In this document: in pieces, positions 5,336 to 50,298 of the stretch
Position numbering within the stretch: position 1 is the stretch's first letter
Layout: each line of letters opens with the position of its first letter
Origin: a phage
Sequence record: PZ452600.1
DNA: 50,825 bases
Reading direction: 5' to 3' (one strand)
Notes under the pieces: generated by a model
What the model was told of the DNA's origin: nothing
The model's database searches: none
What the model saw: the letters and a program-made list of their open reading frames with translations, nothing else
Translations under genes and position numbers: made by a program

Positions 5336-5340
5336 AATTA

Positions 5341-6212: not shown

Positions 6213-6218
6213 CATCTA

Positions 6219-6245: not shown

Positions 6246-6258
6246 TGGAGGAAGCAAA

Positions 6259-7230
6259 ATGGCTAAAAAATACGATGAATTAGATGCTACCATTGTAGCA
6301 AATCATTTACAGGTTCAGGGCGTTAAGGGTGATGCTTCTGATATGGGTATTTGGACCGCTCAAGAGCTACACAAGATCCGTTCAACGGCATACGAGAAAG
6401 AGTATCCGGCAGGTTCCGCACTTCGCGTATTCCCTGTAACAAACGAGCTTTCTGATACTGATAAGACTTTTGAGTATCAGACTTTTGATAAGGTTGGCTA
6501 CGCGAAAATTATCGCCGACTACACCGACGATCTGCCGACTGTGGACGCGCTGATGACTTCTGAGTTTGGCAAAGTGTTCCGCCTGGGTAACGCTTATCTG
6601 ATCTCCATTGATGAGATTAAAGCAGGTCAGCGAACTGGCAAGAGCCTGTCAACTCGCAAGGCTAACGCCGCGCAAAATGCACATGATCAGCTGATTAACT
6701 TCCTGGTGTTCAAAGGTTCCAAGCCTCATAAGATCGTTTCCGTTTTCGATCACCCTAACCTTACGAAAATTGTTTCTAAAGGATGGATGAGCCAGGATGG
6801 AAACACCAAGTTCCCTGATGTGGCAAGCGATGAACTGGAGGCTGCAATCGAGACTATCGAGGAAGTAACCAAAGGTCAGCACCGCGCGACTAACATCCTG
6901 ATCCCGCCGTCCATGCGTAAAGTCTTGACGGTTCGAATGGAAAATACCACTGAAAGTTATCTTGAATACTTCCAGAAGCAAAACGGCGGCATCACTATCG
7001 ACTCTATCGCAGAGCTTGAGGATATTGACGGCAAAGGTACGAAAGGTTGCTTGGTTTACGAAAAAGATCCAATGAACATGAGCATTGAGATTCCAGAAGC
7101 GTTTAATATGCTTCCGGCGCAGCCAAAAGACCTTCACTTCAAGGTTCCTTGCACTTCCAAGTGTACTGGCCTTACAATTTATCGTCCGTTTACGATGGTG
7201 CTTATTACTGGCTTGAAAAAGTCAGATTAA
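6259..7230 (+). CDS. major capsid protein
   Basis: 323-aa ORF with strong GGAGGA RBS, flanked by intrinsic terminators on both sides; position after scaffold/decoration genes. Confidence 0.65.
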   Translation: MAKKYDELDATIVANHLQVQGVKGDASDMGIWTAQELHKIRSTAYEKEYPAGSALRVFPVTNELSDTDKTFEYQTFDKVGYAKIIADYTDDLPTVDALMTSEFGKVFRLGNAYLISIDEIKAGQRTGKSLSTRKANAAQNAHDQLINFLVFKGSKPHKIVSVFDHPNLTKIVSKGWMSQDGNTKFPDVASDELEAAIETIEEVTKGQHRATNILIPPSMRKVLTVRMENTTESYLEYFQKQNGGITIDSIAELEDIDGKGTKGCLVYEKDPMNMSIEIPEAFNMLPAQPKDLHFKVPCTSKCTGLTIYRPFTMVLITGLKKSD

Positions 7231-7241
7231 TTAGATAACAT

Positions 7242-7270
7242 GGGGAGCCTTAAGGGTTCCCCTTTTTTTA
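7242..7270 (+). terminator. intrinsic terminator after major capsid gene
   Basis: GGGGAGCC-TTAAG-GGTTCCCC + T7. Confidence 0.7.
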
Positions 7271-7287
7271 TTTATGGAGCACGCAAA

Positions 7288-7554
7288 ATGAGCAAAAACT
7301 TAAAACTTAAAGTAACTGGCGTTTGCATGATCATTATGAACGGTAAGCGTTATCATCCTGGTGATGAAATTGAAATTGAATCCGATCGCATTAATGATTC
7401 CGCAATTGAATACCTGATCGCTCGCGGCGATGTGGAAGTTAAAGACAATTCCGAAATTAACGAGCAAATCAAGGAGAAAGCGGAGAAGAAGCGCAAAAAA
7501 GATCCTACCGAGGGCAAGAGCCGCAAAGAGCTAGAGGATGGCGGCGAATATTAA
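7288..7554 (+). CDS. hypothetical head-region protein
   Basis: ATG 7288 with GGAG 8 nt upstream; the track ORF start at 7240 lies inside the capsid-gene terminator hairpin. Confidence 0.45.
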
Positions 7555-7600
7555 TAATTGGGGCGCTTATGCGCCCCTTGTCATATCTGGAGAAAACAAA

Positions 7601-8020
7601 ATGGTAGATGAATTTTACACAGACGCTGAAATCGTTCAGCAAATCGTAAAGTTGGCCCCACCAATGCAGCAGGTTGATCCCGATTTAATTGTGGCATGGA
7701 TTGAGCTTGCTAAAGAATTTGTTTGCAAAAAACGGTTTAAAAACTCATACCCTAAAGCGGTTGCGCTTTACACTCTTCACCTTATGACCTTAGACGGGGC
7801 AATGAAACAGGAAGGTGAAAGCGTAGAAAGCTACTCCCGACGCGTTGCCTCGTTCACTCTGACTGGTGAATTTAGTCAGACGTTTGATCGAATTTCTTCC
7901 GATACAAGCGGAAAGCAGATCCGACAAACGCCGTGGGGCAAAATGTACGAAGTGTTAAACCGTAAGCACGGTGGCGGCTTTGGCCTTGTGACTGGATTGC
8001 GCCGGAGATGCTGCCGATGA
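7601..8020 (+). CDS. putative head-tail connector/adaptor protein
   Basis: ATG 7601 with GGAG RBS; first of four small ORFs between capsid and major tail genes (position-based call). Confidence 0.45.
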
Positions 8021-8391
8021 ACTACAATGAGATTGCAAGAATGGCTACGGCTGGGATTAACTTTTTCAGCGATGCTAACGGTATGTTTAAGTGCATCACG
8101 CAGCAGGGAGGGGTTGAGATTATCGGCGGAGAGGAAGTTACCAAGCCGGAGATTTCAGTGATGATAAAGGGGCTTGTTAGATCTCCGAGGACTAGAGAGG
8201 TTGACGGTGAAGCAATCCGAGTAACCGACAAGTTGGGGATATTCACCAATGAAACTGAGATCAAAAATGGTTATCAGATTGAAATTGATGGCGATCGTTA
8301 TGTTGTCGTTGAAGCAAGACCAGTCAGACAGACTAACATCACGGCAGCTTATCGTCCGATATTAAGGAGGATTGCTGTGCATGGCGGATAA
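8017..8391 (+). CDS. putative head-tail joining protein
   Basis: ATGA overlap with upstream stop; GGAG 9 nt before ATG 8017; position-based. Confidence 0.45.
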
Positions 8392-8824
8392 TTATAAGAT
8401 CAGGGAATTTCACGGTGATATAAGCAGATGGATTGATTCAGTAAGCAGCGGCCTTGTTGATTGCGTTGAAATGTTCGCGACAAACGTCCACGAGGATCTT
8501 GTAAAGCGTTCGCCAGTTGATACGGGCCGATATAAAGCTAACTGGCAGGTAACAGCAAACAAGCCGCCGCTATATGCGCTCAATCAATACGATCGCGATG
8601 GTAGTAAAACCATTGCAGAAGGCAAGCGAGCAATATATGCAATCATGCGGGGCGGTGGCGCGGTGCGGTCAATCTATTTTTCAAACATGCTTATTTACGC
8701 CAATGCGCTTGAATACGGGCATTCAAAACAAGCGCCGTCCGGCGTGCTGGGAATCGTGGCGGTAAAGCTGCGATCCTATATGACTAAGGCAATAAATGAT
8801 TCGAGGGCAAAAAATGCACTATGA
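8381..8824 (+). CDS. putative tail completion / head-tail joining protein
   Basis: AGGAGG RBS before ATG 8381 (track start 8372 is TTG); position-based. Confidence 0.45.
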   Translation: MADNYKIREFHGDISRWIDSVSSGLVDCVEMFATNVHEDLVKRSPVDTGRYKANWQVTANKPPLYALNQYDRDGSKTIAEGKRAIYAIMRGGGAVRSIYFSNMLIYANALEYGHSKQAPSGVLGIVAVKLRSYMTKAINDSRAKNAL

Positions 8825-9215
8825 TTTAATGTTAGCGGCAAGAAAGGCGCTGGCGGCGGAATATGAATCACGATTCAAGATCGCCTATGAAAACGTTGAT
8901 TTTGTTCCGCCTGGTGATGGTTCGATGTGGTTAAAATTTGACTACATGGAAGCCGACACAGATCGCATATCTCTTGATAGAAAATGCGTTTCTTATATCG
9001 GATTGGTTCAGGTTGGAATTGTTATGCCTCCTGGCGGCGGCACTGATAAAGCGCGTTTGCTGGCTAAAGAGATTGCGAGATTTTTCTATGATGGTAGAAT
9101 GTTTGAAACTGGCTATATTAGCGAGGGGGCAAACGTCCACGCATTACTAAAAAGTGAAACAGGTTGGTTCTTACCGATCCGCTTCAGTGTTAGGCTTGAC
9201 ACAAAGGAGGAATAA
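8814..9215 (+). CDS. putative tail terminator protein
   Basis: GAGGG RBS before ATG 8814; immediately upstream of major tail gene; position-based. Confidence 0.45.
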   Translation: MHYDLMLAARKALAAEYESRFKIAYENVDFVPPGDGSMWLKFDYMEADTDRISLDRKCVSYIGLVQVGIVMPPGGGTDKARLLAKEIARFFYDGRMFETGYISEGANVHALLKSETGWFLPIRFSVRLDTKEE

Positions 9216-9217
9216 TC

Positions 9218-9880
9218 ATGCACTTGCCTAATGGTTCTCAAATTTTCATCGGCGTTAATATGGGTGAGCCAATTAGCGCGACTCAAATCAGCAATGCTGA
9301 TAATCCTGTTTTTACAACCGAAAACACTCAAAGCATCAAAAAAGGCGCTTATGTTCTTATTGAAACATCTTCTTGGGGCAAACTTGTTAGTCGAGTGCTT
9401 CGAGTTAAGGAAGTATCAGATAATGTAAGTGTTACTCTTGAGGGTGTTAGCACTAAAGATACAAACGTATTTCCAGAAGGACAGAACACAGCAACTTTCC
9501 GAGAAGTGAAATCATGGGTAGAGATTCCTTGCGTGCAGGATCTTGCGCAGGACGGCGGCGAGCAACAGTATTACACTTATCAGTGTTTGGCTGACGACCA
9601 GGAGCAGCAGTTACCGACCTATAAGAGCGCCGTTTCTCTTGCCTACACTTTCGCGCATGAATATGATAACCCGATTTATCCGATCTTGCGCGAGGCTGAG
9701 GAATCCGGCGACGTAACAGCTTTGCGTATGTACGTTCCTAAAGCTAAAGAGATGCGTTGCTGGGCTGGCGTATTGTCCTTTAATGACATTCCGCAAACAA
9801 CTATGAACGAAATTGAAACTGTTTCCCTTTCCGTATCTCTGAAAGGTCGATTCACGTTCTTACCTTCTGACGTTAAGTAA
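9218..9880 (+). CDS. major tail protein
   Basis: AAGGAGG RBS; 220-aa ORF followed by terminator and the G/G-T chaperone pair; position-based. Confidence 0.55.
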   Translation: MHLPNGSQIFIGVNMGEPISATQISNADNPVFTTENTQSIKKGAYVLIETSSWGKLVSRVLRVKEVSDNVSVTLEGVSTKDTNVFPEGQNTATFREVKSWVEIPCVQDLAQDGGEQQYYTYQCLADDQEQQLPTYKSAVSLAYTFAHEYDNPIYPILREAEESGDVTALRMYVPKAKEMRCWAGVLSFNDIPQTTMNEIETVSLSVSLKGRFTFLPSDVK

Positions 9881-9885
9881 AACAA

Positions 9886-9907
9886 GGGGCGTTGCGCCCC
9901 TTTTTTC
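9886..9907 (+). terminator. intrinsic terminator after major tail gene
   Basis: GGGGCG-TTG-CGCCCC + T6. Confidence 0.7.
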
Positions 9908-9946
9908 ATTCCTGTAAAATCAATCTATCAAATAAATCAATTTCAC

Positions 9947-9965
9947 TTTTAACAAAAAGTGCTAC
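9947..9965 (+). promoter_or_regulatory. inverted box abutting RBS of tail chaperone gene
   Basis: TTTTAACAAAAAGTGCTAC immediately 5' of AAGGAG and ATG 9980. Confidence 0.4.
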
Positions 9966-9979
9966 AAGGAGATCTTGAG

Positions 9980-10297
9980 ATGGCAAAGATGAAACTAACG
10001 TTAGGCCCACTGCCTGATTTTAAGCTGCCTGTTTCTTTCGTGCTTCCAAATGGTGATGAGCAAGTTATTGTTTTTACCGTGCGCCACAAGAAGGCAAGCG
10101 AAATTCACGAACGATACACGGCAGAAAAGCCGATGAGCGACGTAGAAATGATCACCTTCCTTGCTTCCGGTTGGGATTTGGAAGATGAATTTAACGAGGA
10201 AAACGTTGCTAAATTGCTGGATTATTACCCGTCTGCGTCATTATCGCTGACTGGTCATTATATGAAAGCACTTGCGGGGCAGCGGGTAAAAAACTAA
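9980..10297 (+). CDS. tail assembly chaperone (lambda gpG analog)
   Basis: AAGGAG RBS; ORF ends just after slippery heptamer A_AAA_AAC (10288-10294); directly upstream of tape measure. Confidence 0.75.
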   Translation: MAKMKLTLGPLPDFKLPVSFVLPNGDEQVIVFTVRHKKASEIHERYTAEKPMSDVEMITFLASGWDLEDEFNEENVAKLLDYYPSASLSLTGHYMKALAGQRVKN

Positions 10298-10614
10298 AGC
10301 GGGCGGTTTACCTGTTTTACCTCAAGCCGCCAACTGACGCACAATTAGAGGCCGTCGGCCTATCCCGTTCAGACTACGAAGGGGAGGATCCGCCGGAGGT
10401 AATTTTTGATGAATCAATGTTTCAATCTTGGGATCTGTTTTGCGCTATGCAGACGCAATGGAGATCGACTAGCGGCAGTGTGTATGGGTTCGACTATAAC
10501 GTTTTGCCTATGCTTTTTGACATTTACAAGATTGAGGATCGGGAGATGGCGCTAAATGATTTGCGCATCATGGAACAAAAGGCGCTAGAAATGATTCATT
10601 CAAACAAAACATAA
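9980..10614 (+). CDS. tail assembly chaperone G-T fusion (programmed -1 frameshift product)
   Basis: -1 frame is open from the slippery site into ORF 10417-10614 with no stop; the downstream ORF has no RBS of its own. Confidence 0.7.
10288..10294 (+). promoter_or_regulatory. -1 programmed ribosomal frameshift slippery heptamer (A_AAA_AAC)
   Basis: Zero-frame codons gtA AAA AAC followed by TAA; -1 frame open to 10614. Confidence 0.7.
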
Positions 10615-10634
10615 GCGCCGCGAGGCGCTTTTTT
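10615..10634 (+). terminator. intrinsic terminator after G-T
   Basis: GCGCC-GCGA-GGCGC + T6. Confidence 0.6.
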
Positions 10635-10653
10635 AATATCTGGAGGTTTTAAA

Positions 10654-13335
10654 ATGGCTGAAAAATACGCTGGCCTAACGCTAGGCGTTGACGTGTCGCA
10701 GGTCAACAATGCTGTTAAATCATTGCAGCAATTCAAGAAGGCAAACGACGACGCAAAAAAAAGCGTTAATGAATTTGTTGATTCTGAGGTTGTGGCGCGA
10801 CAGCAAGCAAAACAGTTTGCCGAAGAACTGGCGCGCCAGAAAGCAGAATTTAAGAAAATCCAGGAGTCAATTGATCCCACCGCGTCAAAGATGGATAAGC
10901 TGCGAAAGGCAGCGACACAGCTTGATGCGCTATGGAAAAAGGGCATTGTTCCTGATGAGACTTTTTTTGAGCTTGGGGCAATTCTTGAGACACAGCAAAA
11001 CAAGCTGATCGCAACCAAAAAAGCGATGACAGAGGAAGGACGCGCGGCACTTGAGGAATCAAAGAACAAAGCGCGTGCAGCGGAAGAGGCTAAAAAATTC
11101 GTCCAGGCTTTGCGTGAGCAGGAAGAAGCAGCCGGAAAAAGCAAGTCTGAATTGCTGGAAATGAAAGCGGCACAGCTTGGTGTTAGCCAGGAGGCAGCGC
11201 CTTACATCGCAAGGCTGAAAGAGCAGGAAAAGCAGATCCAAAAACTTGGAATTTCTACGGGTCAATACAAACAAGCAATGGCGCAATTGCCAATGCAGAT
11301 CACAGACGTGGTGACTTCACTTGCTTCTGGAATGCCTGTTTGGTTGGTCGCAATCCAGCAGGGCGGACAGATTAAGGATTCTTTTGGTGGCGCATCCAAT
11401 GCTTTAAAAGCGTTGCTATCTTTCCTGAATCCGGCAAACGTGGCGTTTGGCTTACTTTCAGGCACGCTGGCAATTGCTGCATATAATGCCTACAAAACAC
11501 AGACAGAGTTTGAGGCAATTAAAAAAACCGTTCAGGAAACAACTGGCTTGACTGGTGATTTTGCCGAAAAGATTGCTACCGGAATACAGGAGCTTTCCGA
11601 CAAGACAGGCGAAAGCGCCGAAGATCTTGCAAAGGCTTACATCACCACGAAAGACGGCGCGAGCGAGGCGATTAAAAAACTGGTTGACGTTGGCATGACT
11701 TATGATGACGCAAAAAAGAAAGTCAACGAGTACAAGGGCGCGTCTAGCTTTGTCAGCTTGAATAACGAAATTGCAAACCACAAAAACAAAGTCCTTGAGT
11801 TGGGCGATTCGTGGTATGAGGTTTTGAAAGCGAAGCGTGATTACGCTTCCCCGTCCGGCGGCCTGTTAGGTAAGGAGCTTGGCTATGTTAACCCTATGCT
11901 TAAGTTTGCACTTAACACTTATGAAGACATTGGAAAGGTCGTAAAAGATGCGAATAAGGACATGGCGGAACGAGCGGAAAGGATCGACAAAGAAAACTTG
12001 GCCTTAAACAGAGTGCGCGCAGCACAGGAGGCTTTAAACAAAGCCATTGAGGATCAGAAAAATGTGGCGCGTTCGGCTGATGAAGAACTGAAAAAGCGCG
12101 CGGCTGAAAACGTGGAGTTTAGGCGCAAAGAGCTTGAGGAAATCAAGAAGCAGGAGCAGAAAAAGAAAGAGGCTAAAGGTGGAATAGTTCGCGGCCCGAC
12201 TGAGCAGCTTGATAAAGAGTTGTACGTTTTAAAAGCGCAACTGGAGATGCTTAAAGAGCATCGCACTGTTAACGATGTTATTTCTCGCCAGCGTAAATCA
12301 TTATGGAGTATCGAAAAGCAGATCGAGATCCTGGAGGAAGCGCAGAGCAAGCGTAAATTGACCGGAGCGGAACAGGCGCTACTAAACGAGCAAAAAGCCG
12401 TTCTTGAAATGGCAAGGCAAAAAGCGGAGCTAGGGGATCAGATTGTTTTACAGGAGCGCAAAAACAAGCTGGAGCAAGATAGCATTAAGTTTATCCGTGA
12501 AACTCAGGCGGCTATTGATGTGCTTGGCCTTAAGCAACTTGGCTACACTGAAAAGCAGATCGAGCGTGAGCTAGAGTTACGCAAGCTGCGCACCGACTAC
12601 GAGGCGCAAGGCGGAAGCGTTAGCGATGAAGTTTTTCAGCAAATGGAGGCGAAACTTAAGCAGTATTATCAGACACAGGATGAGGTTCAAGGCAACTGGT
12701 TGGCAGGAGCAAAAAACGCATGGGAGATGTTCGCGGAAGATGCAAACAATGCCTATGGCAATGTTCAGCAGATCGCAAGCGAGGCGTTAAACGGCCTTAC
12801 AAACCAATTAGCGAATTTTATCGCTACTGGCAAGGCAAACTTTAAAGACTTCTCGACGGCTATCATCAAAATGATTATTCAGATGATCACGAAAATGGTC
12901 GTCTTTAATGCGTTATCTGGCCTGATGGGTGGTCAAACCTGGACGATGGGGAGCTTGCTTAAGAATATTGGCGGATTTGCTGGCGGTGGATACACTGGAG
13001 ACGGCGGGAAGTATGAGCCAGCCGGAATTGTCCATAAAGGTGAATTTGTCATGACGAAGGAGGCGACGCAGCGTATCGGGGTAGGAAACTTGTACCGCAT
13101 GATGCGAGGCTATGCTAACGGCGGCGTTGTTGGTAGTTCCGGCTATACTGGCGGTGGCGCTGTAACTGGTGGAGCACCTCAATTTAACATCGGCGGGATT
13201 GATGTTAGCATCACTAACGGAAACGATCCGAAGGGCATCGAAACTGGTGTTAAGATGATCTTTACTGATATGATTAAACGTTCCTGTATGCAGGGCGGCG
13301 AGGTTTACGAATTTGTTATGAGCAAGCGAGGTTGA
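10654..13335 (+). CDS. tail tape measure protein
   Basis: 893 aa; long coiled-coil-rich centre, Gly-rich C-terminus; follows G/G-T. Confidence 0.9.
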   Translation: MAEKYAGLTLGVDVSQVNNAVKSLQQFKKANDDAKKSVNEFVDSEVVARQQAKQFAEELARQKAEFKKIQESIDPTASKMDKLRKAATQLDALWKKGIVPDETFFELGAILETQQNKLIATKKAMTEEGRAALEESKNKARAAEEAKKFVQALREQEEAAGKSKSELLEMKAAQLGVSQEAAPYIARLKEQEKQIQKLGISTGQYKQAMAQLPMQITDVVTSLASGMPVWLVAIQQGGQIKDSFGGASNALKALLSFLNPANVAFGLLSGTLAIAAYNAYKTQTEFEAIKKTVQETTGLTGDFAEKIATGIQELSDKTGESAEDLAKAYITTKDGASEAIKKLVDVGMTYDDAKKKVNEYKGASSFVSLNNEIANHKNKVLELGDSWYEVLKAKRDYASPSGGLLGKELGYVNPMLKFALNTYEDIGKVVKDANKDMAERAERIDKENLALNRVRAAQEALNKAIEDQKNVARSADEELKKRAAENVEFRRKELEEIKKQEQKKKEAKGGIVRGPTEQLDKELYVLKAQLEMLKEHRTVNDVISRQRKSLWSIEKQIEILEEAQSKRKLTGAEQALLNEQKAVLEMARQKAELGDQIVLQERKNKLEQDSIKFIRETQAAIDVLGLKQLGYTEKQIERELELRKLRTDYEAQGGSVSDEVFQQMEAKLKQYYQTQDEVQGNWLAGAKNAWEMFAEDANNAYGNVQQIASEALNGLTNQLANFIATGKANFKDFSTAIIKMIIQMITKMVVFNALSGLMGGQTWTMGSLLKNIGGFAGGGYTGDGGKYEPAGIVHKGEFVMTKEATQRIGVGNLYRMMRGYANGGVVGSSGYTGGGAVTGGAPQFNIGGIDVSITNGNDPKGIETGVKMIFTDMIKRSCMQGGEVYEFVMSKRG

Positions 13336-13337
13336 TA

Positions 13338-13688
13338 ATGAAGCTGGATCAGTTTAAGTGGTGTACGCAGGTTCAGAATGGTGGCGGGGCCATGACGTCA
13401 TCGAATAACGATCGAGAGATTGCATTCGGTAACGGATACACACAGGTAGCATCTGGAGGTTTTAACACAATCCGGCGAGAGTTCAGCATTGTTTACGCTG
13501 GGCTTGATTACAGAGATGTTGTCAAGTTCCTGAATGAGCACAGGCTAAAACCTTTCTTGTGGATCATGCCAGATGGAAGCCCTGGATTGTTTAGGGTGAA
13601 AAGCGGTAGCGTCGGCCTTACTCCATTGTCGCCAACCGTTCAGGAAGTAAAAGCCACTTTTACGGAACAATTTACATCAATGCAGTAA
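13338..13688 (+). CDS. minor tail protein (lambda gpM-like)
   Basis: ATG 13338 just after the tape-measure stop (track start 13332 is TTG); first of M-L-K-I-J-like series. Confidence 0.6.
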   Translation: MKLDQFKWCTQVQNGGGAMTSSNNDREIAFGNGYTQVASGGFNTIRREFSIVYAGLDYRDVVKFLNEHRLKPFLWIMPDGSPGLFRVKSGSVGLTPLSPTVQEVKATFTEQFTSMQ

Positions 13689-13693
13689 TTTAA

Positions 13694-13717
13694 AGCCGCC
13701 TTTGTGCGGCTTTTTTC
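13694..13717 (+). terminator. intrinsic terminator after M-like gene
   Basis: GCCGC-CTTTGT-GCGGC + T6. Confidence 0.6.
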
Positions 13718-13750
13718 TTGATGTTACAATGAGCAAAAAGGAGGTAGAAA

Positions 13751-14512
13751 ATGGCTAATAAAGAATCAGGTAGAGTTGAATTTGAGAACTGCCTACAAAG
13801 TTTGTACCCAGGCGAAATTATAACGCTTGTGGAGATTGACGGGACGAAGTTCGGGGCAAATATTTACCGATTTCACAATGAGAACATCTCTTATACTGCC
13901 GAGGAATTAATGCAAGCGCAGCAAACCGGAATCTTGCCGCCGAAAGATATTATTTTTCAGGGTGATGTTTACGGAGCGCGGCCTTTCGGTGTGAGCGGGA
14001 TTAACTTCACAAGTAACGGCAGGGCAGATAAGCCTCAGCTTATAGTGTCAAACCTTGATAGCAGGGTGAGCGCCATGATCAGAAATTACAATGGCATGAT
14101 GCAAGCAAAGGTGACTTTCTGGATAACGGCAAAGGAATTTATCGGAGAAGGCGGAGCAATCAAAGATGGCGCTTACAGAAAATTGGTTTATTACATTGAG
14201 CGCCCAAGCCAGTACAATAGAGAGATAGCGAAATTTGATCTAACATCGCCTTACGATATGGATGGATTAATGATCCCGCCGCGCATCACTCAAAGCGTCT
14301 GCTATTGGGCGCAAAGGGGGTGGTACAGGAGCGGAAAGGGTTGCTCTTATAACGGATCGGCAATGTTCGATAAAGACAATAATCCAGTAACAGATCCATC
14401 ACAAGACTATTGCGCCGGGACTGTAACGGCTTGCAAATTGAGATTCGGTCAGCAAAACGAGTTGGATTTCGGCGGTTGCGCGGTGGCGTCACTGCTACGG
14501 AGGAATCAATAA
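13751..14512 (+). CDS. minor tail protein (lambda gpL-like)
   Basis: AAGGAGG RBS; C-terminal Cys cluster (CYWAQ...CSYNG...CAGTVTAC...GGC) as in gpL-type proteins. Confidence 0.7.
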   Translation: MANKESGRVEFENCLQSLYPGEIITLVEIDGTKFGANIYRFHNENISYTAEELMQAQQTGILPPKDIIFQGDVYGARPFGVSGINFTSNGRADKPQLIVSNLDSRVSAMIRNYNGMMQAKVTFWITAKEFIGEGGAIKDGAYRKLVYYIERPSQYNREIAKFDLTSPYDMDGLMIPPRITQSVCYWAQRGWYRSGKGCSYNGSAMFDKDNNPVTDPSQDYCAGTVTACKLRFGQQNELDFGGCAVASLLRRNQ

Positions 14513-15243
14513 TGATTAGTGCAAAAATTAAACTTGAAATAATGCAGCACGTTAAAGAGGAATACCCTAAAGAGGCTTGCGGCGTCATAACTCAAAAGTC
14601 ACGGGTACAGAAATATCACCGCATAACCAACGTGCATGACGATCCAGAAAATCACTTTGAAATGGACGCCGTAGAATACGCTGAATCGCTCGACAAAGGC
14701 GAATTAATCGCGGTGGTGCATTCCCATTGCGGGGATGGTGCTAGCACGATACCGAGCGCGCACGACTCATGTATGTGCGATGAAATGGGTGTGTCGTGGA
14801 TTATAGTATCATGGCCCGAAGGTGATATGAGAATTGTCGAGCCGCAGGAGAGGCCGCTTATCGGTCGCCCGTGGTCGCTGGGGTCGTTCGATTGCTGGGG
14901 TCTTATCATGGCATGGCATAAACAGCACGGAGTAGTATTGAATGACTTCCGAAAGCCTTACGAGTGGTGGAAGTCAGAATATGGTGAAAATCTTTACCAG
15001 GATAATTATTTGAAAGAGGGATTTGTTGAAACTAACGAGCCTCCAAAACCTGGTGATATGGTGATTATGCAACTATCATCACCAGTCTGGAATCATGCGG
15101 GAATTTATTTGGGTAACAACCAGCTATTACATCATGCGTTTGGAAAGCTATCTCGCATCGACTTGTATTCTGGATGGTATCAGGAGCACACTGTAAAAAT
15201 TTGCCGACATAAGGATCTGAAATATGACATTGAAAGTAATTAA
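14512..15243 (+). CDS. tail tip assembly protein (lambda gpK-like, MPN/JAMM + NlpC/P60)
   Basis: TAATG overlap with L-like stop; JAMM-like HSHCGDGASTIPSAHD then Cys/His peptidase signature FDCWG...NHAGIYLG. Confidence 0.8.
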   Translation: MISAKIKLEIMQHVKEEYPKEACGVITQKSRVQKYHRITNVHDDPENHFEMDAVEYAESLDKGELIAVVHSHCGDGASTIPSAHDSCMCDEMGVSWIIVSWPEGDMRIVEPQERPLIGRPWSLGSFDCWGLIMAWHKQHGVVLNDFRKPYEWWKSEYGENLYQDNYLKEGFVETNEPPKPGDMVIMQLSSPVWNHAGIYLGNNQLLHHAFGKLSRIDLYSGWYQEHTVKICRHKDLKYDIESN

Positions 15244-15820
15244 GCTATCTGGTTCTCTGGGGCGTAGATTTGGCGTCTTTCACAAAATGGCGGTTGACTC
15301 ATACCCCGAAGCAATACGTGCGTTATCTTCCCAGGTTGAAGGGTTCAAAGACTACATGCAAAGCGAAGTAGGATCGCGCATGAAGTACGCTGTATTCGTT
15401 GACGGTAAAAACGTTGGTCAGCATGATGAAAAATCATGGAAGTGCGCGCGAGAGGTTCGAATAGTTCCCGTTCCAACTGGTTCTAAGTCCGGCGGCCTGT
15501 TTAATGTTGTTCTTGGCGCTGCAATTATGGCTACTGCGTTCTTTACTGGTGGTGCAAGTCTTGCTGCTATGGGTGCTTTTGCATCTTCCGCATTTATGAT
15601 GGGTGGTGCTATCGCGCTTGGCGGTGTCATGCAAATGATCTCGCCGCAGCAGGGAGGAATGAAACTGCAAAGCCAATCAGCAGAAAACAAGCCTTCTTAC
15701 GCTTTCGGCGGTGCTGTAAATACCACGGCGGCAGGTTATCCGGTTCCTTTGCCATATGGATATAGGACAGTAGGCGGCGCAATCTGGTCGGCTGGCAGCT
15801 ACGCAGAAGATAAAGCATAA
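15224..15820 (+). CDS. tail assembly protein (lambda gpI-like)
   Basis: 198 aa; hydrophobic Gly/Ala-rich C-terminal segment; between K-like and J-like genes. Confidence 0.65.
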   Translation: MTLKVIKLSGSLGRRFGVFHKMAVDSYPEAIRALSSQVEGFKDYMQSEVGSRMKYAVFVDGKNVGQHDEKSWKCAREVRIVPVPTGSKSGGLFNVVLGAAIMATAFFTGGASLAAMGAFASSAFMMGGAIALGGVMQMISPQQGGMKLQSQSAENKPSYAFGGAVNTTAAGYPVPLPYGYRTVGGAIWSAGSYAEDKA

Positions 15821-15826
15821 AAAAAT

Positions 15827-15850
15827 ACCCGCCTTGCGCGGGTTTTTTTG
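15827..15850 (+). terminator. intrinsic terminator before J-like gene
   Basis: CCCGC-CTTGC-GCGGG + T7. Confidence 0.65.
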
Positions 15851-15898
15851 TGCATTTATAATGTGCAAACCAAGAAACAGCACAAAAGGTTAAAAGTC

Positions 15899-18800
15899 AT
15901 GGCTAAATATATGATAAGCGGCAGTAAGGGCGGAAGCAAAAAGCCATACGTGCCAAAAGAGATGGAAGATAACCTGATCTCGATAAACAAGATTAAAGTT
16001 TTGCTGGCTGTATCTGATGGAGAGTGCGATCCAGATTTCACGTTGCGTGATCTTTATCTTGATGATGTTCCGGTTATTGCCAGCGATGGCACTGTTAACT
16101 ATGAGGGGGTAACGGCTGAATATAGACCAGGCACACAGACGCAAGATTACATCCAGGGGTTTACTGACACATCAAGCGAGGTGACAGTTTCGCGAGACAT
16201 TACAACAGACAATCCCTATATTATCTCTGTGACAAACAAAAATCTTTCTGCAATAAGAATCAAGATTCTGATGCCAGTTGGCATAAAACAGGAGGATAAC
16301 GGCGATCTTGTTGGCGTAAGGGTTGAGTATGCCGTAGATATGGCTATTGATGGCGGTTCTTATAGCGAGGTTATGAGAGATGTAATTGACGGCAAGACAA
16401 GATCAGGATACGACCGCAGCAGAAGGATTGATCTTCCTAAGTTTGATGAGCGCGTTTTAATCCGAGTAAAGCGACTGACTCCAGACAGCACATCTTCAAA
16501 GGTGACTGATAAAATCAAGCTGCAAAGTTACGCTGAGGTTGTTGATGCAAAATTCCGTTATCCTCTGACTGGCCTTGTATTCGTAGAATTTGACAGCGAA
16601 TTGTTTCCTACGCAAATCCCTAACATTTCTATAAAAAAGAAATGGAAGATTATTAATGTGCCAAGCAACTATGATCCAATATCAAGAGAATATCACGGGT
16701 CATGGGATGGGACTTTTAAAAAAGCGTGGTCAAATAATCCCGCTTGGGTTCTTTATGATCTGGTGACAAATCAGCGTTATGGACTTGATCAGCGAGAGTT
16801 AGGAATACAGATCGACAAGTGGAGCTTATACGAGGCGGGCGTTTACTGTGATCAGAAAGTTCCAGACGGTAAGGGAGGTACAGAGCCTCGCTACCTATGC
16901 GATGTGGTGATTCAGAATCAAGTTGAGGCTTATCAGCTAATCCGTGACATTTGCTCAATCTTTCGCGGAATGAGTTTTTGGAATGGTGAGAGCTTATCAA
17001 TCGTGATTGATAAGCCACGCGATCCATCATACGTGTTTACTAATGAAAACGTCATCAACGGTGATTTTCAGTACACAACCGCAAGCGAAAAAAGCATGTA
17101 CACGCAGTGTAACGTGACGTTTGACGACGAACAAAACATGTATCAGCAGGACGTAGAGGGGGTTTTTGATACTGAGGCGGCATTACGATTTGGATACAAT
17201 CCAACAAGCATTACAGCGATCGGGTGCACACGCAGGAGCGAAGCGAATCGTCGCGGTCGGTGGGTTTTGAAAACAAACCTTAGAAGCACTACTGTAAACT
17301 TTGCTACCGGACTAGAGGGGATGATTCCATCAATAGGTGATGTTATTGCTATCGCTGATAATTTTCAGAGTAGCAACCTAACGTTAAACCTATCGGGCCG
17401 AGTAATGGAAGTTTCAGGATTGCAGGTTTTCGTTCCGTTTAAGGTTGATGCTCGCCCTGGTGATTTTATTATCATCAACAAGCCGGACGGCAAGCCAGTT
17501 AAGCGCACGATCTCAAAGGTTAGCGCAGACGGAAAAACCATTGAGTTAAATATTGGATTTGGTTTTGATGTTAAGCCTGATACTGTTTTTGCGATTGACC
17601 GTGCTGACCTTGCGTTGCAGCAATACGTTGTGACAACTATCAGCAAGGGTGATGACGAAAACGAGTTTACCTATTCAATCACGGCTGTGGAGTACGATCC
17701 GAACAAATACGACGAGATTGATTATGGCGTAAACATTGATGACAGGCCGACGTCAATTGTTCAGCCTGACGTGATGGCAGCGCCTGAGAACGTTAAGATC
17801 TCATCTTATTCTCGCGTCGTGCAGGGTGTTAGCGTTGAGACTATGGTTGTTTCATGGGATAAGGTTCCTTACGCATCGCTTTATGAAATGCAGTGGCGAA
17901 AAGGTGATGGTAACTGGCTGAATACGCCGCAGACCGCTAACAAAGAGATAGAGGTAGAAGGGATTTATTCAGGCAACTACCAAGTAAGGGTGAGATCCGT
18001 TTCTGCAAGCGGTAACACTTCCCCGTGGTCAAAGATTGCAACCGCAACCCTGACAGGTAAAGTTGGCGAGCCAGGAGCGCCGATTAATCTTACAGCTTCT
18101 GATAATGAAGTTTTTGGCATTCGTGTCAAATGGGGTATGCCGGAAGGATCAGGCGATACGGCTTACATTGAGCTTCACCAATCGCCAGACGGAACGGTTG
18201 AAAACTCAAGTCTGCTTACGCTGATTCCATATCCTCAATATGAGTATTGGCATAGCACGTTACCAGCGGGGCAAGTTGTATGGTATAGAATCCGCAGCGT
18301 TGACAGAATAGGCAACGTTTCCAGCTGGACTGACTTTGTTCGCGGTATGGCGTCAGATGATGTTGAATCTGTTTTGGGCGACATTCTGGACAAGATTTTT
18401 GATACAGAAGCTGGTCAAGAAATCAAAGAGAACGCCATAGACAGCGCCAATAAAATCAAAGACCAGGCACAATCAATCATACAGAACGCGTTGGCAAATG
18501 ATGCAGATGTGAAGTGGACGCGAGTGCAAAACGGAAAGCGTAAGGCTGAATATGGTTATGCTCTTGAGCTTATCGCCAATGAAACAGAAGCGCGCGTAAC
18601 TCAAATCGAAGAGTTAAGGGCATCAATTGATGGCGAGATAACATCAAGCATCAAGACAGTGCAGGAGGCAATTGCCACTGAATCAGAGACGCGAGCGACT
18701 CAAATTCAGCAGCTTGATTCTAAATTCACAAAAGAAATCGACGGCGTGCGCAAGGATACTTCTGCAAGCATTAGCGATGTAAGGCAGACAATCACTAACG

Positions 18801-19477
18801 AGTCAGAAGCGCGCGCTCAGGCCGTTCAGCAGCTTGACGCTAAGTTCACGAAAGAGATAAACGACCTTGACGGAGTTATCAAAACAGAAGTCGAGGCTAA
18901 CATCTCAGAAGTGAAACAGGCGATCGCCAATGAGACAGAGGCAAGGGTTCAGGCTGACCAGGCATTAACAGCACGATTTGGCGACGTTGAATCTGCATTG
19001 GTTGAAAAGTTGGATTCTTGGGCGAGCGTTGATTCAGTTGGCGCTAAATACGCTATGAAACTTGGCCTTACTTACAAAGGCCAGCAGTACAGCGCCGGAA
19101 TGGTTATGCAGTTAACGCAATCACCGCAAGGATTAATATCACAGATTCTGTTTGACGCTAACAGATTCGCGATCATGACAAGTTCTAGCGGCGGGGTATA
19201 TACGCTTCCTTTCGTGGTTGAGAATAACCAGGTTTTCATCAATAGCTTACTTGTGAAAGATGGTTCAATAACTAATGCTATGATTGGAAACTTTATTCAG
19301 TCAAACAATTTTGTTCAAAATCAGCAAGGTTGGAGGCTTGATAAAAACGGAATATTTGAAAACTACGGATCAACTCCAGGAGAGGGAGCTACTAAATTCA
19401 CCAACGAAGGATTGAAGGTAAAAGATGCAAACGGAGTATTGAGGGTTGAAGTCGGAAGGATTACCGGAAGCTGGTAA
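15899..19477 (+). CDS. central tail fibre / host specificity protein (lambda gpJ-like)
   Basis: 1192 aa from ATG 15899, downstream of terminator 15827-15850; the track ORF start at 15848 lies in the terminator. Confidence 0.85.
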   Translation: MAKYMISGSKGGSKKPYVPKEMEDNLISINKIKVLLAVSDGECDPDFTLRDLYLDDVPVIASDGTVNYEGVTAEYRPGTQTQDYIQGFTDTSSEVTVSRDITTDNPYIISVTNKNLSAIRIKILMPVGIKQEDNGDLVGVRVEYAVDMAIDGGSYSEVMRDVIDGKTRSGYDRSRRIDLPKFDERVLIRVKRLTPDSTSSKVTDKIKLQSYAEVVDAKFRYPLTGLVFVEFDSELFPTQIPNISIKKKWKIINVPSNYDPISREYHGSWDGTFKKAWSNNPAWVLYDLVTNQRYGLDQRELGIQIDKWSLYEAGVYCDQKVPDGKGGTEPRYLCDVVIQNQVEAYQLIRDICSIFRGMSFWNGESLSIVIDKPRDPSYVFTNENVINGDFQYTTASEKSMYTQCNVTFDDEQNMYQQDVEGVFDTEAALRFGYNPTSITAIGCTRRSEANRRGRWVLKTNLRSTTVNFATGLEGMIPSIGDVIAIADNFQSSNLTLNLSGRVMEVSGLQVFVPFKVDARPGDFIIINKPDGKPVKRTISKVSADGKTIELNIGFGFDVKPDTVFAIDRADLALQQYVVTTISKGDDENEFTYSITAVEYDPNKYDEIDYGVNIDDRPTSIVQPDVMAAPENVKISSYSRVVQGVSVETMVVSWDKVPYASLYEMQWRKGDGNWLNTPQTANKEIEVEGIYSGNYQVRVRSVSASGNTSPWSKIATATLTGKVGEPGAPINLTASDNEVFGIRVKWGMPEGSGDTAYIELHQSPDGTVENSSLLTLIPYPQYEYWHSTLPAGQVVWYRIRSVDRIGNVSSWTDFVRGMASDDVESVLGDILDKIFDTEAGQEIKENAIDSANKIKDQAQSIIQNALANDADVKWTRVQNGKRKAEYGYALELIANETEARVTQIEELRASIDGEITSSIKTVQEAIATESETRATQIQQLDSKFTKEIDGVRKDTSASISDVRQTITNESEARAQAVQQLDAKFTKEINDLDGVIKTEVEANISEVKQAIANETEARVQADQALTARFGDVESALVEKLDSWASVDSVGAKYAMKLGLTYKGQQYSAGMVMQLTQSPQGLISQILFDANRFAIMTSSSGGVYTLPFVVENNQVFINSLLVKDGSITNAMIGNFIQSNNFVQNQQGWRLDKNGIFENYGSTPGEGATKFTNEGLKVKDANGVLRVEVGRITGSW

Positions 19478-19506
19478 AAAAAGGGGGCATAGCCCCCTTT
19501 AATTTT
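19476..19506. terminator. bidirectional terminator between convergent J-like and receptor-binding genes
   Basis: A-run, GGGGGC-ATA-GCCCCC, T-run. Confidence 0.7.
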
Positions 19507-37625: not shown

Positions 37626-37679
37626 GTTCGATGTGATTATGCCAGGTTTTTACACCTGGCTTTTAACAAAAAGTGCTAT
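37626..37679 (-). promoter_or_regulatory. box cassette
   Basis: minus-strand box (37679-37660), hairpin GCCAGGTG/CACCTGGC, CATAAT (37641-37636), CATCGAAC (37633-37626); ATG 37606. Confidence 0.5.
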
Positions 37680-39530: not shown

Positions 39531-39597
39531 CCTCGTTTGTTGTCGATGGGTGTAATATACCATTCAGGCGCACATCGCTTTTAACAAAAAGTGCTAT
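39531..39597 (-). promoter_or_regulatory. box cassette
   Basis: minus-strand box (39597-39578), TATATT (39559-39554), CATCGACAACAAACGAGG (39548-39531); ATG 39522. Confidence 0.5.
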
Positions 39598-42487: not shown

Positions 42488-42756
42488 AAAAGGCATTAAT
42501 CAGCGTTTTGGCGGCAATGGCATTCCTGACCGGATGCAAAGAAGATGGCGCGCATGTTGGCAATGTGCAGATGGCTAACCCTGGCGATGACTACAGCGTA
42601 AGGGAGCTATTCACCGCTGACGGTTGCACCGTTTACCGATTCTATGACGATCGCACTGTTTACTTCACCAACTGCAAGGGAACGACTAGCTGGGAAGTGT
42701 CGAAAAGCAACGGCAAAGGCACAACAACAGAATATATGACCGTCGAGACAAAATAG
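42484..42756 (+). CDS. early lipoprotein
   Basis: ATGA overlap; signal peptide with lipobox LTGC (MKKALISVLAAMAFLTGCKED). Confidence 0.6.
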   Translation: MKKALISVLAAMAFLTGCKEDGAHVGNVQMANPGDDYSVRELFTADGCTVYRFYDDRTVYFTNCKGTTSWEVSKSNGKGTTTEYMTVETK

Positions 42757-42812
42757 CACTTTTTGTTAAAACGCCAGGTGCAAAGCCTGGCATAATAGCC
42801 TCATCGAAACGA
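42753..42812 (+). promoter_or_regulatory. box cassette
   Basis: box 42753-42772 contains upstream stop TAG; hairpin GCCAGG/CCTGGC; CATAAT 42791-42796; CATCGAAACGA 42802-42812. Confidence 0.5.
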
Positions 42813-43215: not shown

Positions 43216-43259
43216 ATAGCACTTTTTGTTAAAACTCGAAAACGATAACCAGGCATAAT
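43216..43259 (+). promoter_or_regulatory. box cassette
   Basis: box 43216-43235; N18; CATAAT 43254-43259; stem-loop GGGCGGCACGGCGTCGCCC in leader. Confidence 0.5.
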
Positions 43260-44117: not shown

Positions 44118-44160
44118 ATAGCACGAATTGTTAAAACTCAAATGTGGGGCCAGGTATAAT
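44118..44160 (+). promoter_or_regulatory. box cassette (variant box)
   Basis: ATAGCACGAATTGTTAAAAC 44118-44137; hairpin GTGGGGCC/GGCCCCAC with TATAAT 44155-44160 in loop. Confidence 0.5.
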
Positions 44161-47882: not shown

Positions 47883-48173
47883 ATGGCAAACAAAACTTAC
47901 CGCAAACTACTGGTTAACGCTTTTGAAAACATCGCGCAGTGTAACAAGTGGAACGACTCTAAACACTCGCCAATCACAATGAAGCGCGCCGGATTCAAAA
48001 ATGCTCGTTCATGGGCGCGAGCTTTCGCAGCTTGCTATATGCCGGATGGCGGACTAGGGGTGATGAACGATTTTTTGATCAACATGATAGAGGAAGCGGC
48101 GCGAGAGGATCGACCGCTGACACAGCGAGATTTTGACGACTTCGCGCGCGATGAGCTTTACTATCTGAGCTAA
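47883..48173 (+). CDS. hypothetical protein
   Basis: AAGGGG RBS; 96 aa; stop abuts box 48173-48192. Confidence 0.5.
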   Translation: MANKTYRKLLVNAFENIAQCNKWNDSKHSPITMKRAGFKNARSWARAFAACYMPDGGLGVMNDFLINMIEEAAREDRPLTQRDFDDFARDELYYLS

Positions 48174-48216
48174 TAGCACTTTTTGTTAAAACTTCCGCAA
48201 GGGCATTTGGTAAAGT
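48173..48216 (+). promoter_or_regulatory. box cassette
   Basis: box 48173-48192; hairpin AAGGGCA/TGCCCTT; TAAAGT 48211-48216; GCGAAAC box in leader. Confidence 0.45.
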
Positions 48217-48721: not shown

Positions 48722-49032
48722 TTTATATTCACTACTACCAAATCGGAACTAACGAGAACAAGAAAGAGCATCGTTTCATCCATGATGATTTGGACAAGGC
48801 AAAGGCACAGCAACAGGTTTTAGGCGGTGTCATTCAGGCTTTTGAGCCTGTAGAAGATATTGAGTACCGCGAGCATTTAAAAGATGTTGTTATTGATGAG
48901 ATCTCTTGCTTGATTGATGATATGACAAATCACGGCCCTGGTTCCCCGTGGGAAGATGCAGGATCTGTAACGTGGGATAAGGCCAAAGTTAAGACGCTAA
49001 ACAACTTTCGAGAGATTCTCGACGGTTTTTAA
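48719..49032 (+). CDS. hypothetical protein
   Basis: ATGA overlap; 104 aa. Confidence 0.45.
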
Positions 49033-49102
49033 TTAAAAACGCATAGCCGTTAGAGCGCCTCAATCGCATTCTAACGAGCTATTTTTCTGGTAAGGTGATT
49101 TA

Positions 49103-49231
49103 ATGGATGAGTACAAACAACCCTCGCAATGGTGCAAAGAGAAGCAGGAGGAAGCACTTGAGCGCGGAGATGTAGAAGAAGCTATGAACTATTTCAAACT
49201 TGCGGAAGAATGGAAGGGGAGAGGATACTGA
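49103..49231 (+). CDS. hypothetical small protein (42 aa, uncertain)
   Basis: Not in ORF track; AAGGTGA RBS + ATG 49103; stop overlaps next ATG. Confidence 0.3.
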   Translation: MDEYKQPSQWCKEKQEEALERGDVEEAMNYFKLAEEWKGRGY

Positions 49232-49461
49232 TGTTCGGCATGAACGAGGCGCAATTCAACGCAGCTAAACGCCAGGCTAAAAAGTGCGGCGAGGCAATGA
49301 AAGCGGATGTGGAAAAGCGCGGGAAGTATGTTGATGAAGTAATGAAGGGCATCATTGCAGAACACTACCAGACAATCGCGCCAATGTTGACGATCACTCA
49401 ATTCATTTGGCTATGTGGTTACTTGCGAGGACGTTGGGGGAACGCTTTCGACAGGGAATGA
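49231..49461 (+). CDS. hypothetical protein
   Basis: ATG 49231 overlapping upstream stop (track ORF starts 49210). Confidence 0.45.
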   Translation: MFGMNEAQFNAAKRQAKKCGEAMKADVEKRGKYVDEVMKGIIAEHYQTIAPMLTITQFIWLCGYLRGRWGNAFDRE

Positions 49462-49623
49462 TTGACAACTCTTTCCTGATTGGTTAGCATGGCGTCGTTT
49501 ACATAAGAGCGGCTTTGTCCGAACGCGTGACGCGATAGTCACACAACAACGGCGATATGCAGGAGGTTTTTGCAATGCAAAATAATCCGTAAGACGTATC
49601 GCCTTTTTTAATGGAGATCCAAA

Positions 49624-49857
49624 ATGATTAAATACAAATTAACCGTTTCTTTCCGTGATACCGTTATTCATCCTTTCTACAATAGCTTTGTTAACAGCTT
49701 TACAGTAGAAGCGACAAAGGATCAGCTTGACGGTGACGAAACTTGCATTTCTATCGGCAATGTTGCTTATCCGATTCACAACATTACCAGCATTAAGCGT
49801 GAGGTTGTCGCTGATGAATTACAAAGTGAAGATGACGATCCGGCGAATGGGGCGTAA
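49624..49857 (+). CDS. hypothetical protein
   Basis: GGAG RBS; follows a 160-nt leader containing promoter-like and terminator-like elements. Confidence 0.45.
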   Translation: MIKYKLTVSFRDTVIHPFYNSFVNSFTVEATKDQLDGDETCISIGNVAYPIHNITSIKREVVADELQSEDDDPANGA

Positions 49858-49999
49858 CTGCCAATCATGCAAACAGGAATATGAATGCGTAGTTGATGCT
49901 CTTGATGAACTGGAAGCAGTAGCAAAAGCAAAAGAGCAATCGGGCGCTAATCCTGAAACACATCAATTTTCAATTAATCTTGTGAGGGCTTTACAATGA
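49814..49999 (+). CDS. hypothetical protein (start uncertain)
   Basis: GAGG 9 nt before ATG 49814; overlaps upstream ORF by 44 nt; alternative starts at 49832 or 49847. Confidence 0.35.
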   Translation: MNYKVKMTIRRMGRNCQSCKQEYECVVDALDELEAVAKAKEQSGANPETHQFSINLVRALQ

Positions 50000-50220
50000 T
50001 CGCATTATCTTTCTGCATTGGTTTTATCATGGCTATCATTATCTTTTCCGTTGTCATGCGCTTTGCTTATAAGTTCGTGATTAATAAAGGTTGGTACGCT
50101 TCTGCAATCTGGAGCGAAAAACAAAAGAAATGGCTTGTCCGTGGTCAATACCTGATGATCGGCAGCAAGATCCTAAATTCCATTCGAGCCAAAGATGGAA
50201 AAGTAAAATATACAGCTTAA
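49996..50220 (+). CDS. small membrane protein
   Basis: ATGA overlap; N-terminal hydrophobic helix; followed by terminator 50226-50249. Confidence 0.45.
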   Translation: MIALSFCIGFIMAIIIFSVVMRFAYKFVINKGWYASAIWSEKQKKWLVRGQYLMIGSKILNSIRAKDGKVKYTA

Positions 50221-50225: not shown

Positions 50226-50249
50226 ACCCGCCGCACGGCGGGTTTTTTA
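50226..50249 (+). terminator. intrinsic terminator upstream of terS
   Basis: CCCGCCG-CA-CGGCGGG + T6. Confidence 0.65.
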
Positions 50250-50298
50250 TTGCCCGTTGTCTGGTATAATCAGGCATCTAACCAAAGGAGGATTAATA

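Follow-up and report, generated by a model that had tools for sequence, protein, structure and literature searches.

Positions 49462-49609 of a T1-like phage genome (sequence record PZ452600.1; 50,825 bases, hereafter the window) carry an element which we interpret, with moderate confidence, as a sigma-70-driven, intrinsically terminated small RNA, about 113 nt long, whose formation would also restrict transcription into the genes at 49624-50220, and which would be one representative of a new RNA family of the Drexlerviridae. The window is a complete, circularly permuted genome (Drexlerviridae, Tempevirinae, Warwickvirus) that begins at terL and finishes at the end of terS, and it shares 99.5% identity over the query with Escherichia phage swan01. 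The element occupies the sole sizeable non-coding gap within the last small-gene block before terS, and the features described below lie on the + strand unless otherwise indicated. Within the window-type clade, in which the RNA ends with a long hairpin and a U-run, conservation was shown for the promoter pattern, for the helices through covariation, and for the U-tract. An initial annotation of this sequence had proposed a small RNA of about 110 nt with its own promoter and terminator. This proposal was supported, since relatives retain the promoter and the predicted start as well as the fold, in which compensatory changes occur. The motifs on which it was built (TTGACA-N17-TAGCAT at 49462-49490, the GGCGATA/TATCGCC stem, TTTTTT, GGAGG and the peptide MQNNP) were all found where it had placed them.

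The -35 hexamer TTGACA (49462-49467) directly follows the TGA stop codon of the upstream gene, and the -10 hexamer TAGCAT occupies 49485-49490. Together, they match the sigma-70 consensus at 10 of 12 positions with a spacer of 17 nt, which is within the 16-18 nt criterion, and the site is one of two in 6.8 kb that match the consensus this well. The significance of the promoter comes from the conservation of the hexamers in relatives. TTGAC was retained in every clade, even beside a non-homologous upstream gene, and the -10 hexamer follows the family pattern TAnnnT (the variants TAACAT, TAACCT, TAGTAT, TAACGT and TAGATT were observed) at an unchanged distance from the predicted start. Between the hexamers, the motif CTGATTGG (49476-49483) forms invariant columns in the alignments A1 and A2. 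In other clades it reads CTGAnnGG, with the counterparts CTGAGCGG in T1, CTGAGTGG in Rtp and CTGACCGG in Webervirus, and its distance to the hexamers varies by 2-3 nt among clades. Across all clades, the hexamers keep both their pattern and their spacing, the 6-7 nt downstream of the -10 differ, and conservation returns at G49497. This G is the predicted start and the first nucleotide of a 13-nt single-stranded 5′ tail (GUUUACAUAAGAG, 49497-49509; family pattern GUnnACAnAnGAG). The tail is unpaired in every fold, and its G1, U2, A5, C6 and A12 are invariant across the 23 diverse sequences of a core alignment spanning the clades (A6). The sequence AATGATTGAC (49459-49467 in the window; 7583-7593 in T1, L055) is common to the window and T1 despite their unrelated upstream genes. 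These genes end in different frames, with TGA before TTGACA in the window and inside TTGACC in T1. It seems that the promoter is a module that moves without the genes on either side of it.

The tail is followed by three hairpins. HP0 (49510-49521; CGG(C)/(U)CCG with a variable loop) was defined by RNAalifold and covariation, and its stem differs across clades (CGGC/GCCG, GCGC/GCGC, GCUC/GAGC, GCCC/GGGU and GCGG/CCGC). The single-stranded linker AACGC (49522-49526), for which the family pattern is AACG with A26, A27 and G29 invariant in A6, separates HP0 from HP1 (49527-49542). HP1, which was supported by covariation, has a 5-bp stem (GUGAC/GUCAC) closed by the conserved hexaloop GCGAUA; its stem reads GUGGC, GUAGC, GUGAG, GCAGC, GCGGC, GCCAG or GCAUC in relatives, and an intergenic hairpin of this type is unique within the genome. 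Next comes a single-stranded, CA-rich linker with AAC repeats (ACAACAAC, 49543-49550), which is kept in the window-type clade and unpaired in all folds. The third hairpin, HP2 (49551-49603), is the predicted terminator stem and consists of a 9-10 bp basal stem, an internal loop, and inner and apical stems. In the window, the basal stem has 9 bp (49551-49559 with 49595-49603, containing GGCGATA at 49551-49557 and TATCGCC at 49597-49603). The inner stem GGA/UCC pairs 49562-49564 with 49586-49588, the apical stem UUUUGC-AAU-GCAAAA pairs 49568-49573 with 49577-49582, and the conserved GUAAGA (49589-49594) sits in the internal loop. Thus, the part of HP2 that the initial annotation had described as a long loop is actually structured.

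A U6 tract (49604-49609) directly follows HP2 and marks the predicted 3′ end of the RNA; position 49610 is A. HP2 therefore has both sequence features of an intrinsic terminator, namely a GC-rich base (GGCG/CGCC) and a U-tract directly after it. A simple terminator scanner with a loop limit of 8 nt passed over this hairpin. The folding energy of HP2 was -21.1 kcal/mol, compared with -10.8 +/- 2.5 kcal/mol for shuffled sequences (z = -4.2), and none of 200 shuffles was as good. The minimum-energy fold of the full-length RNA is the terminator form. Two further pairings were considered and rejected: in a pseudoknot of the 5′ UUUAC with GUAAG and in a pairing of the HP1 loop GCGAUA with the 3′ arm of the terminator, the variants do not covary. 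No tRNA was detected by ARAGORN anywhere in the window. Model R1, built from the alignment A3 described below, found one copy of the element in the window (109.6 bits) and no second match in the genome.

To evaluate the helices, we analyzed A3, which contains 17 distinct window-type sequences from GenBank relatives and IMG/VR contigs and for which RNAalifold predicted three helices. In A3, 98.1% of 323 cells were paired, compared with 20-56% when the partners were slid by 1-3 columns. Double changes were observed at 8 of 19 pairs, and the covariation score was reached by none of 500 shuffles. The basal stem of HP2 showed compensatory changes at 6 of 10 pairs. The core alignment A6 gave similar values, with 97.1% of cells paired, double changes at 7 of 9 pairs and 58 double-change cells against 18.7 in shuffles. 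Double changes occurred at three of the four HP0 pairs in A6; in HP1, all cells were paired and four of the five pairs showed compensatory changes. Identity of the element between phages was 62-80%, whereas third codon positions of the adjacent gene reached only 37-64%. Absence of the fold from relatives had been named beforehand as an observation that would speak against the proposal; the fold is conserved in the relatives and covaries. Since A3 contained 22 G.U cells and only 1 C.A cell, the result favors the RNA of the + strand.

BLAST with the 171-nt region detected 131 phage records with identity down to about 70%, and the T1-type and Webervirus-type versions detected 74 and 349 further phage records, respectively. 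R1 gave weaker, syntenic matches in T1 (between ST58 and ST57; copy at 7589-7754) and in TLS, and the Rtp copy was spotted by eye and confirmed by the core model R2. Among 80 IMG/VR loci fetched via terS, the element was found in 58 by a regular expression and in 7 more by R2; at least 7 of the loci without a match have no upstream sequence to search. All copies among these loci have the same orientation as terS and precede it by about 0.6-1.2 kb. The universal core consists of the promoter, the 5′ tail GUnnACAnAnGAG, HP0 with any stem sequence, AACG, and HP1 with any 5-bp stem and usually the loop GCGAUA. The element is annotated in none of the phage records examined. Rfam gave no family on the element with E up to 10 for the window and E up to 1 for the Rtp, LF82-11 and Webervirus versions. 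A match at the gathering score was found only at neighboring tRNA genes, and the sub-threshold matches (Plastid-ycf2, Y RNA-like YrlA and Plastid-psbl-rps4) also fell on tRNA genes, off the leader core. Literature searches yielded neither an account of this RNA nor transcriptome data for any T1-like phage. The 2024 re-annotation of TLS lists three sigma-70 promoters, and the promoter of the element is not among them (PMC11447400); a 2014 study of four T1-like phages is also silent on the element (PMC4070988). No similarity to the element was detected in 5,426 E. coli genomes, and thus it is not host-derived. A degenerate core pattern gave at least 120 matches in bacterial genomes; among the matches listed, one had a 5-bp HP1, without any other feature. 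We consider the element to be this phage's representative of an RNA family that has not been described before and that is found at one position, upstream of terS, in nearly all T1-like phages (Drexlerviridae).

The 3′ end of the RNA differs among clades. In the window type, the long HP2 is followed by a U-run. An automated count found at least four T in the next 8 nt in 18 of 23 distinct sequences. Since four more have a T-run that lies partly inside the predicted stem and Pocis76 alone has none, the U-run is present in 22 of the 23 on our own reading of the automated table. The RNA of Klebsiella weberviruses is shorter, at about 57 nt, and the terminator is made by a second hairpin (GCCCC-GCUU-GGGGC); after this hairpin, some sequences have UUUUAUU and others AUUUAC. 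In T1, TLS and L065-L069, extra hairpins are present; the loop of the last one contains ..CCGUAA.., no U-run follows, and the RNA continues into the next ribosome-binding site (RBS). The T1/TLS type shows that the core can also simply form part of a 5′ untranslated region.

In Rtp, LF82-11, KLB19, L079 and related loci, this same last hairpin lies 9-11 nt before one or two genuine, co-oriented tRNA genes (Arg-UCU, Ser-GCU, Trp plus Arg-CCU). In these tRNA clades, a cut by RNase P would set the 3′ end of the leader. A 3′ boundary directly behind the last hairpin thus arises by two independent routes, termination and 5′ processing of a tRNA, and for this reason a discrete RNA product is favored. 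T4 species 1 and 2 (rnaC and rnaD) are small stable RNAs that are co-transcribed with phage tRNAs and whose function is unknown. The tRNA-clade leaders resemble them in layout, being located directly before same-strand tRNA genes; unlike the T4 RNAs, the element of the window phage has no tRNA and ends with a terminator instead. A BLAST overlap with an annotated "tRNA-Ser" does not indicate a tRNA remnant in T1; in LF82-11, a genuine tRNA starts just after the leader. Several clades of Drexlerviridae carry one to six tRNA genes per locus in this stretch upstream of terS (Arg-UCU, Arg-CCU, Ser-GCU, Ser-UGA, Trp, Asn, Met and Val), such as the stretches L057 4893-4969, L258 501-588, L259 495-582, L079 2018-2172 and L094 1350-1997. 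The corresponding region of L094 holds six tRNA genes, and no leader was found there by either the regular expression or R2. In Klebsiella phage KLB19, the coding sequence MVRG_087 (L259 536-784) begins inside a same-strand tRNA-Ser gene (495-582), which suggests a mis-annotation in the public entry.

We also analyzed the transcription context. A 19-nt repeat, ATAGCACnnnTTGnTAAAA, occurs in 22 copies in the genome, compared with 2.6 expected, and is mostly oriented with the local genes (for example 42753-42771, 43216-43234, 44118-44136 and 48173-48191 on the + strand, and 37661-37679 and 39579-39597 on the - strand). This repeat was described for TLS as an element of unknown role (PMC11447400). 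The copy at 44118 has TATAAT 18 nt downstream of its TTAAAA, and the repeats may be the -35/UP part of early promoters. The last copy before the element is at 48173, and no terminator lies between the upstream genes and HP2; thus, early transcripts are expected to read into HP2. Between 49609 and 49624 there is no room for a further promoter, and the downstream cassette can be reached only by read-through of HP2. The small unit is closed by a canonical intrinsic terminator (50226-50249; hairpin 50226-50243), which is followed by the extended -10 promoter of terS (TGGTATAAT). The same order, a terminator and then an extended -10 promoter (TGnTATAAT or TGGTAAAAT) before terS, was found in the window, T1, TLS and Pocis76 (junctions at 50226-50272 in the window, L055 8322-8365, L056 8723-8770 and L014 1795-1845). 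Since terS has its own promoter after the 50226 terminator, the element heads its own small unit and need not be the entry to the structural operon.

In the mechanism that we propose, host sigma-70 polymerase would initiate at about G49497 from the promoter at 49462-49490, and the transcript would consist of the 13-nt single-stranded tail, HP0, HP1 with its loop GCGAUA, the CA-rich linker and the long HP2. HP2 and U6 would function in vivo as an intrinsic terminator at which most transcripts, including those reading in from upstream, would stop at about 49609. Transcripts begun at G49497 would become the non-coding RNA of about 113 nt, which would be a stable, discrete species and the main product. 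The minority that reads through would be the only source of mRNA for the three genes at 49624-50220, and their expression would thereby be set low. We speculate that the RNA binds a protein or another RNA through its unpaired parts, namely the 5′ tail, the AACG linker, the HP1 loop and GUAAGA.

The element can be compared with Hfq-type small RNAs, among which the type I 3′UTR-derived RNAs MicL and DapZ share the terminator of an mRNA. As in RNAs of this kind, a dedicated promoter lies where the upstream gene ends, the terminator serves both the element and that operon, and the terminator hairpin carries U6. The element also has AAC repeats and a conserved single-stranded 5′ end as a possible seed. 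The sequence features of this class (own promoter and terminator, 3′ U-run and unpaired seed) are present in the window-type clade only, and the clades without a terminator do not fit. Several other observations weigh against our interpretation. Complements of the 5′ tail in the phage genome numbered 17, compared with 14.3 expected by chance, and those of 49538-49550 (the linker ACAACAAC and the 3′ arm of HP1) numbered 12, compared with 11.8; no target stood out above chance in the phage genome. The 6.8-kb stretch contains 16 promoter-like sites, compared with 11.3 +/- 3.1 in shuffles, so that the hexamers alone are not significant, and the -10 hexamer is weak (4/6). HP2 is long and interrupted relative to the textbook terminators elsewhere in the genome. 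Finally, in T1, TLS, L065-L069 and Pocis76, the last hairpin leads without a U-tract straight into the RBS. Thus, the core cannot depend on termination, and it could act in cis on the message downstream.

A wider proposal, which we make tentatively and hold to be doubtful, is that the core belongs to a new class of phage RNA acting on a host machine. It might bind the polymerase or an elongation factor in cis and bring about factor-independent antitermination in the manner of put, or sequester a host RNA-binding protein or nuclease. If true, this would account for the retention of the core before a terminator, tRNA genes or mRNA alike.

A specific form of cis action, which we regard as unlikely, is that of an elongation-modifying leader. 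The put RNAs of HK022 and the nut sites of lambda are cis-acting antitermination RNAs, and in a leader of this kind the 5′ tail, HP0 and HP1 would bind the polymerase or an antitermination factor during transcription and let polymerases from this promoter pass HP2, the terminator at 50226 and possibly those of the structural operon, with the short RNA as a by-product. The resemblance lies in small promoter-proximal hairpins with conserved unpaired bases, located upstream of terminators. These two hairpins are the deepest-conserved part of the element and persist where neither a terminator nor a tRNA follows. The downstream genes differ among clades, which suggests a function not bound to one gene, and untranslated leader-plus-tRNA transcripts would gain from protection against termination. 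The structural operon (1597-19500, + strand) contains about 10 co-oriented intrinsic terminators of canonical form, including those at 1597, 5340, 6218, 7242, 9884, 10613, 13692, 15827 and 19480, between which no promoter excess was observed; such terminators are also tabulated in TLS. However, R1 and R2 gave no match in the HK022 genome, by sequence or structure, and no boxA-like motif was seen on the + strand when the sequence was read. The reverse complement of UAAGAGCG equals lambda boxA (CGCUCUUA), but the match lies on the strand opposite to the one required, T1 and Rtp do not retain it, and we regard it as a coincidence. No Q- or N-like protein was identified among the seven neighboring proteins scanned. 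The conserved terS promoter in the window, T1, TLS and Pocis76 also means that the promoter of the element need not feed the late operon, which weakens a put-like reading as well as one modeled on lambda PR′-tR′.

The latter comparison concerns the lambdoid phages. In Shiga-toxin phages, StxS, the prematurely terminated PR′-tR′ leader transcript, is reported to be a regulatory small RNA (PMC7547250). The element resembles StxS and lambda 6S RNA in having a constitutive host-type promoter and, 100-200 nt further on, an intrinsic terminator ahead of phage genes. In contrast to the lambdoid PR′-qut-tR′ arrangement, which uses the Q antiterminator and a DNA site, no Q was found among the seven proteins, and the element is not the sole entry to the late operon. 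Moreover, unlike lambda 6S RNA and StxS, the RNA of the element covaries across a whole family of virulent phages, and some clades have no terminator.

Less likely again is a factor- or ligand-responsive attenuator for 49624-50220, in which a binder of the conserved core would switch the terminator. The layout of promoter, structured leader, terminator and an RBS 4 nt past the U-tract would suit such a device. In window-type sequences, the 3′ arm of HP0 (GCCG) could pair with the start of HP2 (CGGC), enclosing HP1, as an antiterminator. However, this helix is impossible in L071, L075 and L078, where HP0 is CUC/GAG and the terminator is kept, and it shows no covariation. Therefore, a switching attenuator receives no comparative support. 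The initial annotation had suggested an analysis of alternative structures; the sole candidate antiterminator helix is the one that is not conserved, and the terminator form is the minimum-energy fold. Several clades lack any terminator, and Rfam gave no riboswitch match.

It is highly improbable that the element is merely the terminator of the upstream early operon with an adjacent restart promoter and without a functional RNA. HP2 must indeed also end upstream transcripts, such as those from the repeat-type promoter at 48173, since no terminator intervenes. However, HP0, HP1, the 5′ tail and the loops are conserved with covariation though dispensable for termination, and the core is kept in clades without a terminator. 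Furthermore, a promoter upstream of a same-sense terminator cannot restart transcription beyond that terminator.

We see scarcely any chance that the element acts at the DNA level as a replication origin, pac site or operator. The spacer motif CTGAnnGG and the first transcribed bases are conserved as DNA, and terS is near. Against this, the helices fit RNA of the + strand (22 G.U cells, which would be A.C mismatches on the other strand, compared with 1 cell of the opposite kind), and no operator-like symmetry was visible. Moreover, packaging of T1 starts in a terminal repeat annotated at 1-2800, and the T1 copy of the element is some 4.8 kb away from it.

The initial annotation had also suggested a leader-peptide attenuator based on the five-codon open reading frame (ORF) MQNNP (49575-49592; ATG 49575, TAA 49590-49592). 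Its ATG lies within the terminator hairpin, with GGAGG 9 nt upstream. Three bases of this GGAGG (49562-49566) are paired, and the ATG is in the apical loop. A second in-frame ATG upstream, at 49557, would give an ORF of 11 codons. The MQNNP codons lie inside a 17-nt apical insertion that most relatives and genera do not have. In relatives that have an insertion, the apical stem covaries and is retained through compensatory changes or with an entirely different sequence, namely UUAUUGC/GCAAUA (morffagbaw), UCCGC/GCGGA (L040) or UUCAG/CUGAA (Pocis76). The peptide is altered, as in morffagbaw, where it becomes MQYNP, or is lost; the observed changes keep the stem and not the peptide. Translation of three frames in 19 homologues revealed no conserved reading frame, with stops and frame shifts throughout, and indels of 1-2 nt shift the frames even between close relatives. 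Judged by these alignments, the mini-ORF is non-functional and came about by accident with an apical insertion specific to its lineage. With neither the frame nor the antiterminator helix conserved, we give virtually no credence to ribosome-mediated attenuation. An ORF of 54 amino acids on the - strand (49411-49575) was also rejected, since it is broken by the same indels in the alignments of relatives.

T1-like phages are a classical and abundant group whose use against E. coli, Shigella and Klebsiella is increasing. To our knowledge, their gene regulation is still largely unmapped. A structured RNA that occurs as a single copy and is maintained by selection at the same site in over 550 sequenced genomes offers a clear handle on this regulation. 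The association of one RNA core with three modes of 3′ end (terminator, tRNA processing site and mRNA fusion) is an unusual case. The family can now be annotated by a covariance model, and small ORFs across the element should no longer be called by annotators.

The gene upstream of the element encodes a 76-amino-acid protein of phrog_303 (49231-49461; stop TGA 49459-49461). In T1, the upstream gene belongs to a different family, and thus no fixed protein partner can be deduced from synteny. The downstream cassette (49613-50220) starts with the RBS GGAG (49613-49616) and contains three small genes. The first is an ORF of 77 amino acids (49624-49857), the second encodes a CxxC protein of phrog_2919 that ends at 49999, and the third encodes a DUF7299 membrane protein (49996-50220). 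The phrog_2919 gene probably starts at ATG 49814 (MNYKVKMTIRRMGRNC...) and not at 49847 as in some records. GAGG is located 8 nt upstream of this ATG, homologues of other clades start with MxWKVxLTIRKMG, and the match to the PHROG profile begins at profile position 12. With this start, the gene overlaps the end of the 77-amino-acid ORF by 44 nt. Among the seven neighboring proteins scanned, including phrog_303, phrog_2919 and DUF7299, none has a known function. The record NC_049830.1 (PGN590; L012) starts in the middle of the phrog_303 gene, at about 49352 of the window, which could reflect a packaging end or an assembly break. Further upstream, a weak terminator-like hairpin was observed at 49008-49022. 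A second short gap (49033-49102) contains an inverted repeat, GTTAGA...TCTAAC, followed by a T-rich stretch, before a gene for 42 amino acids at 49103.
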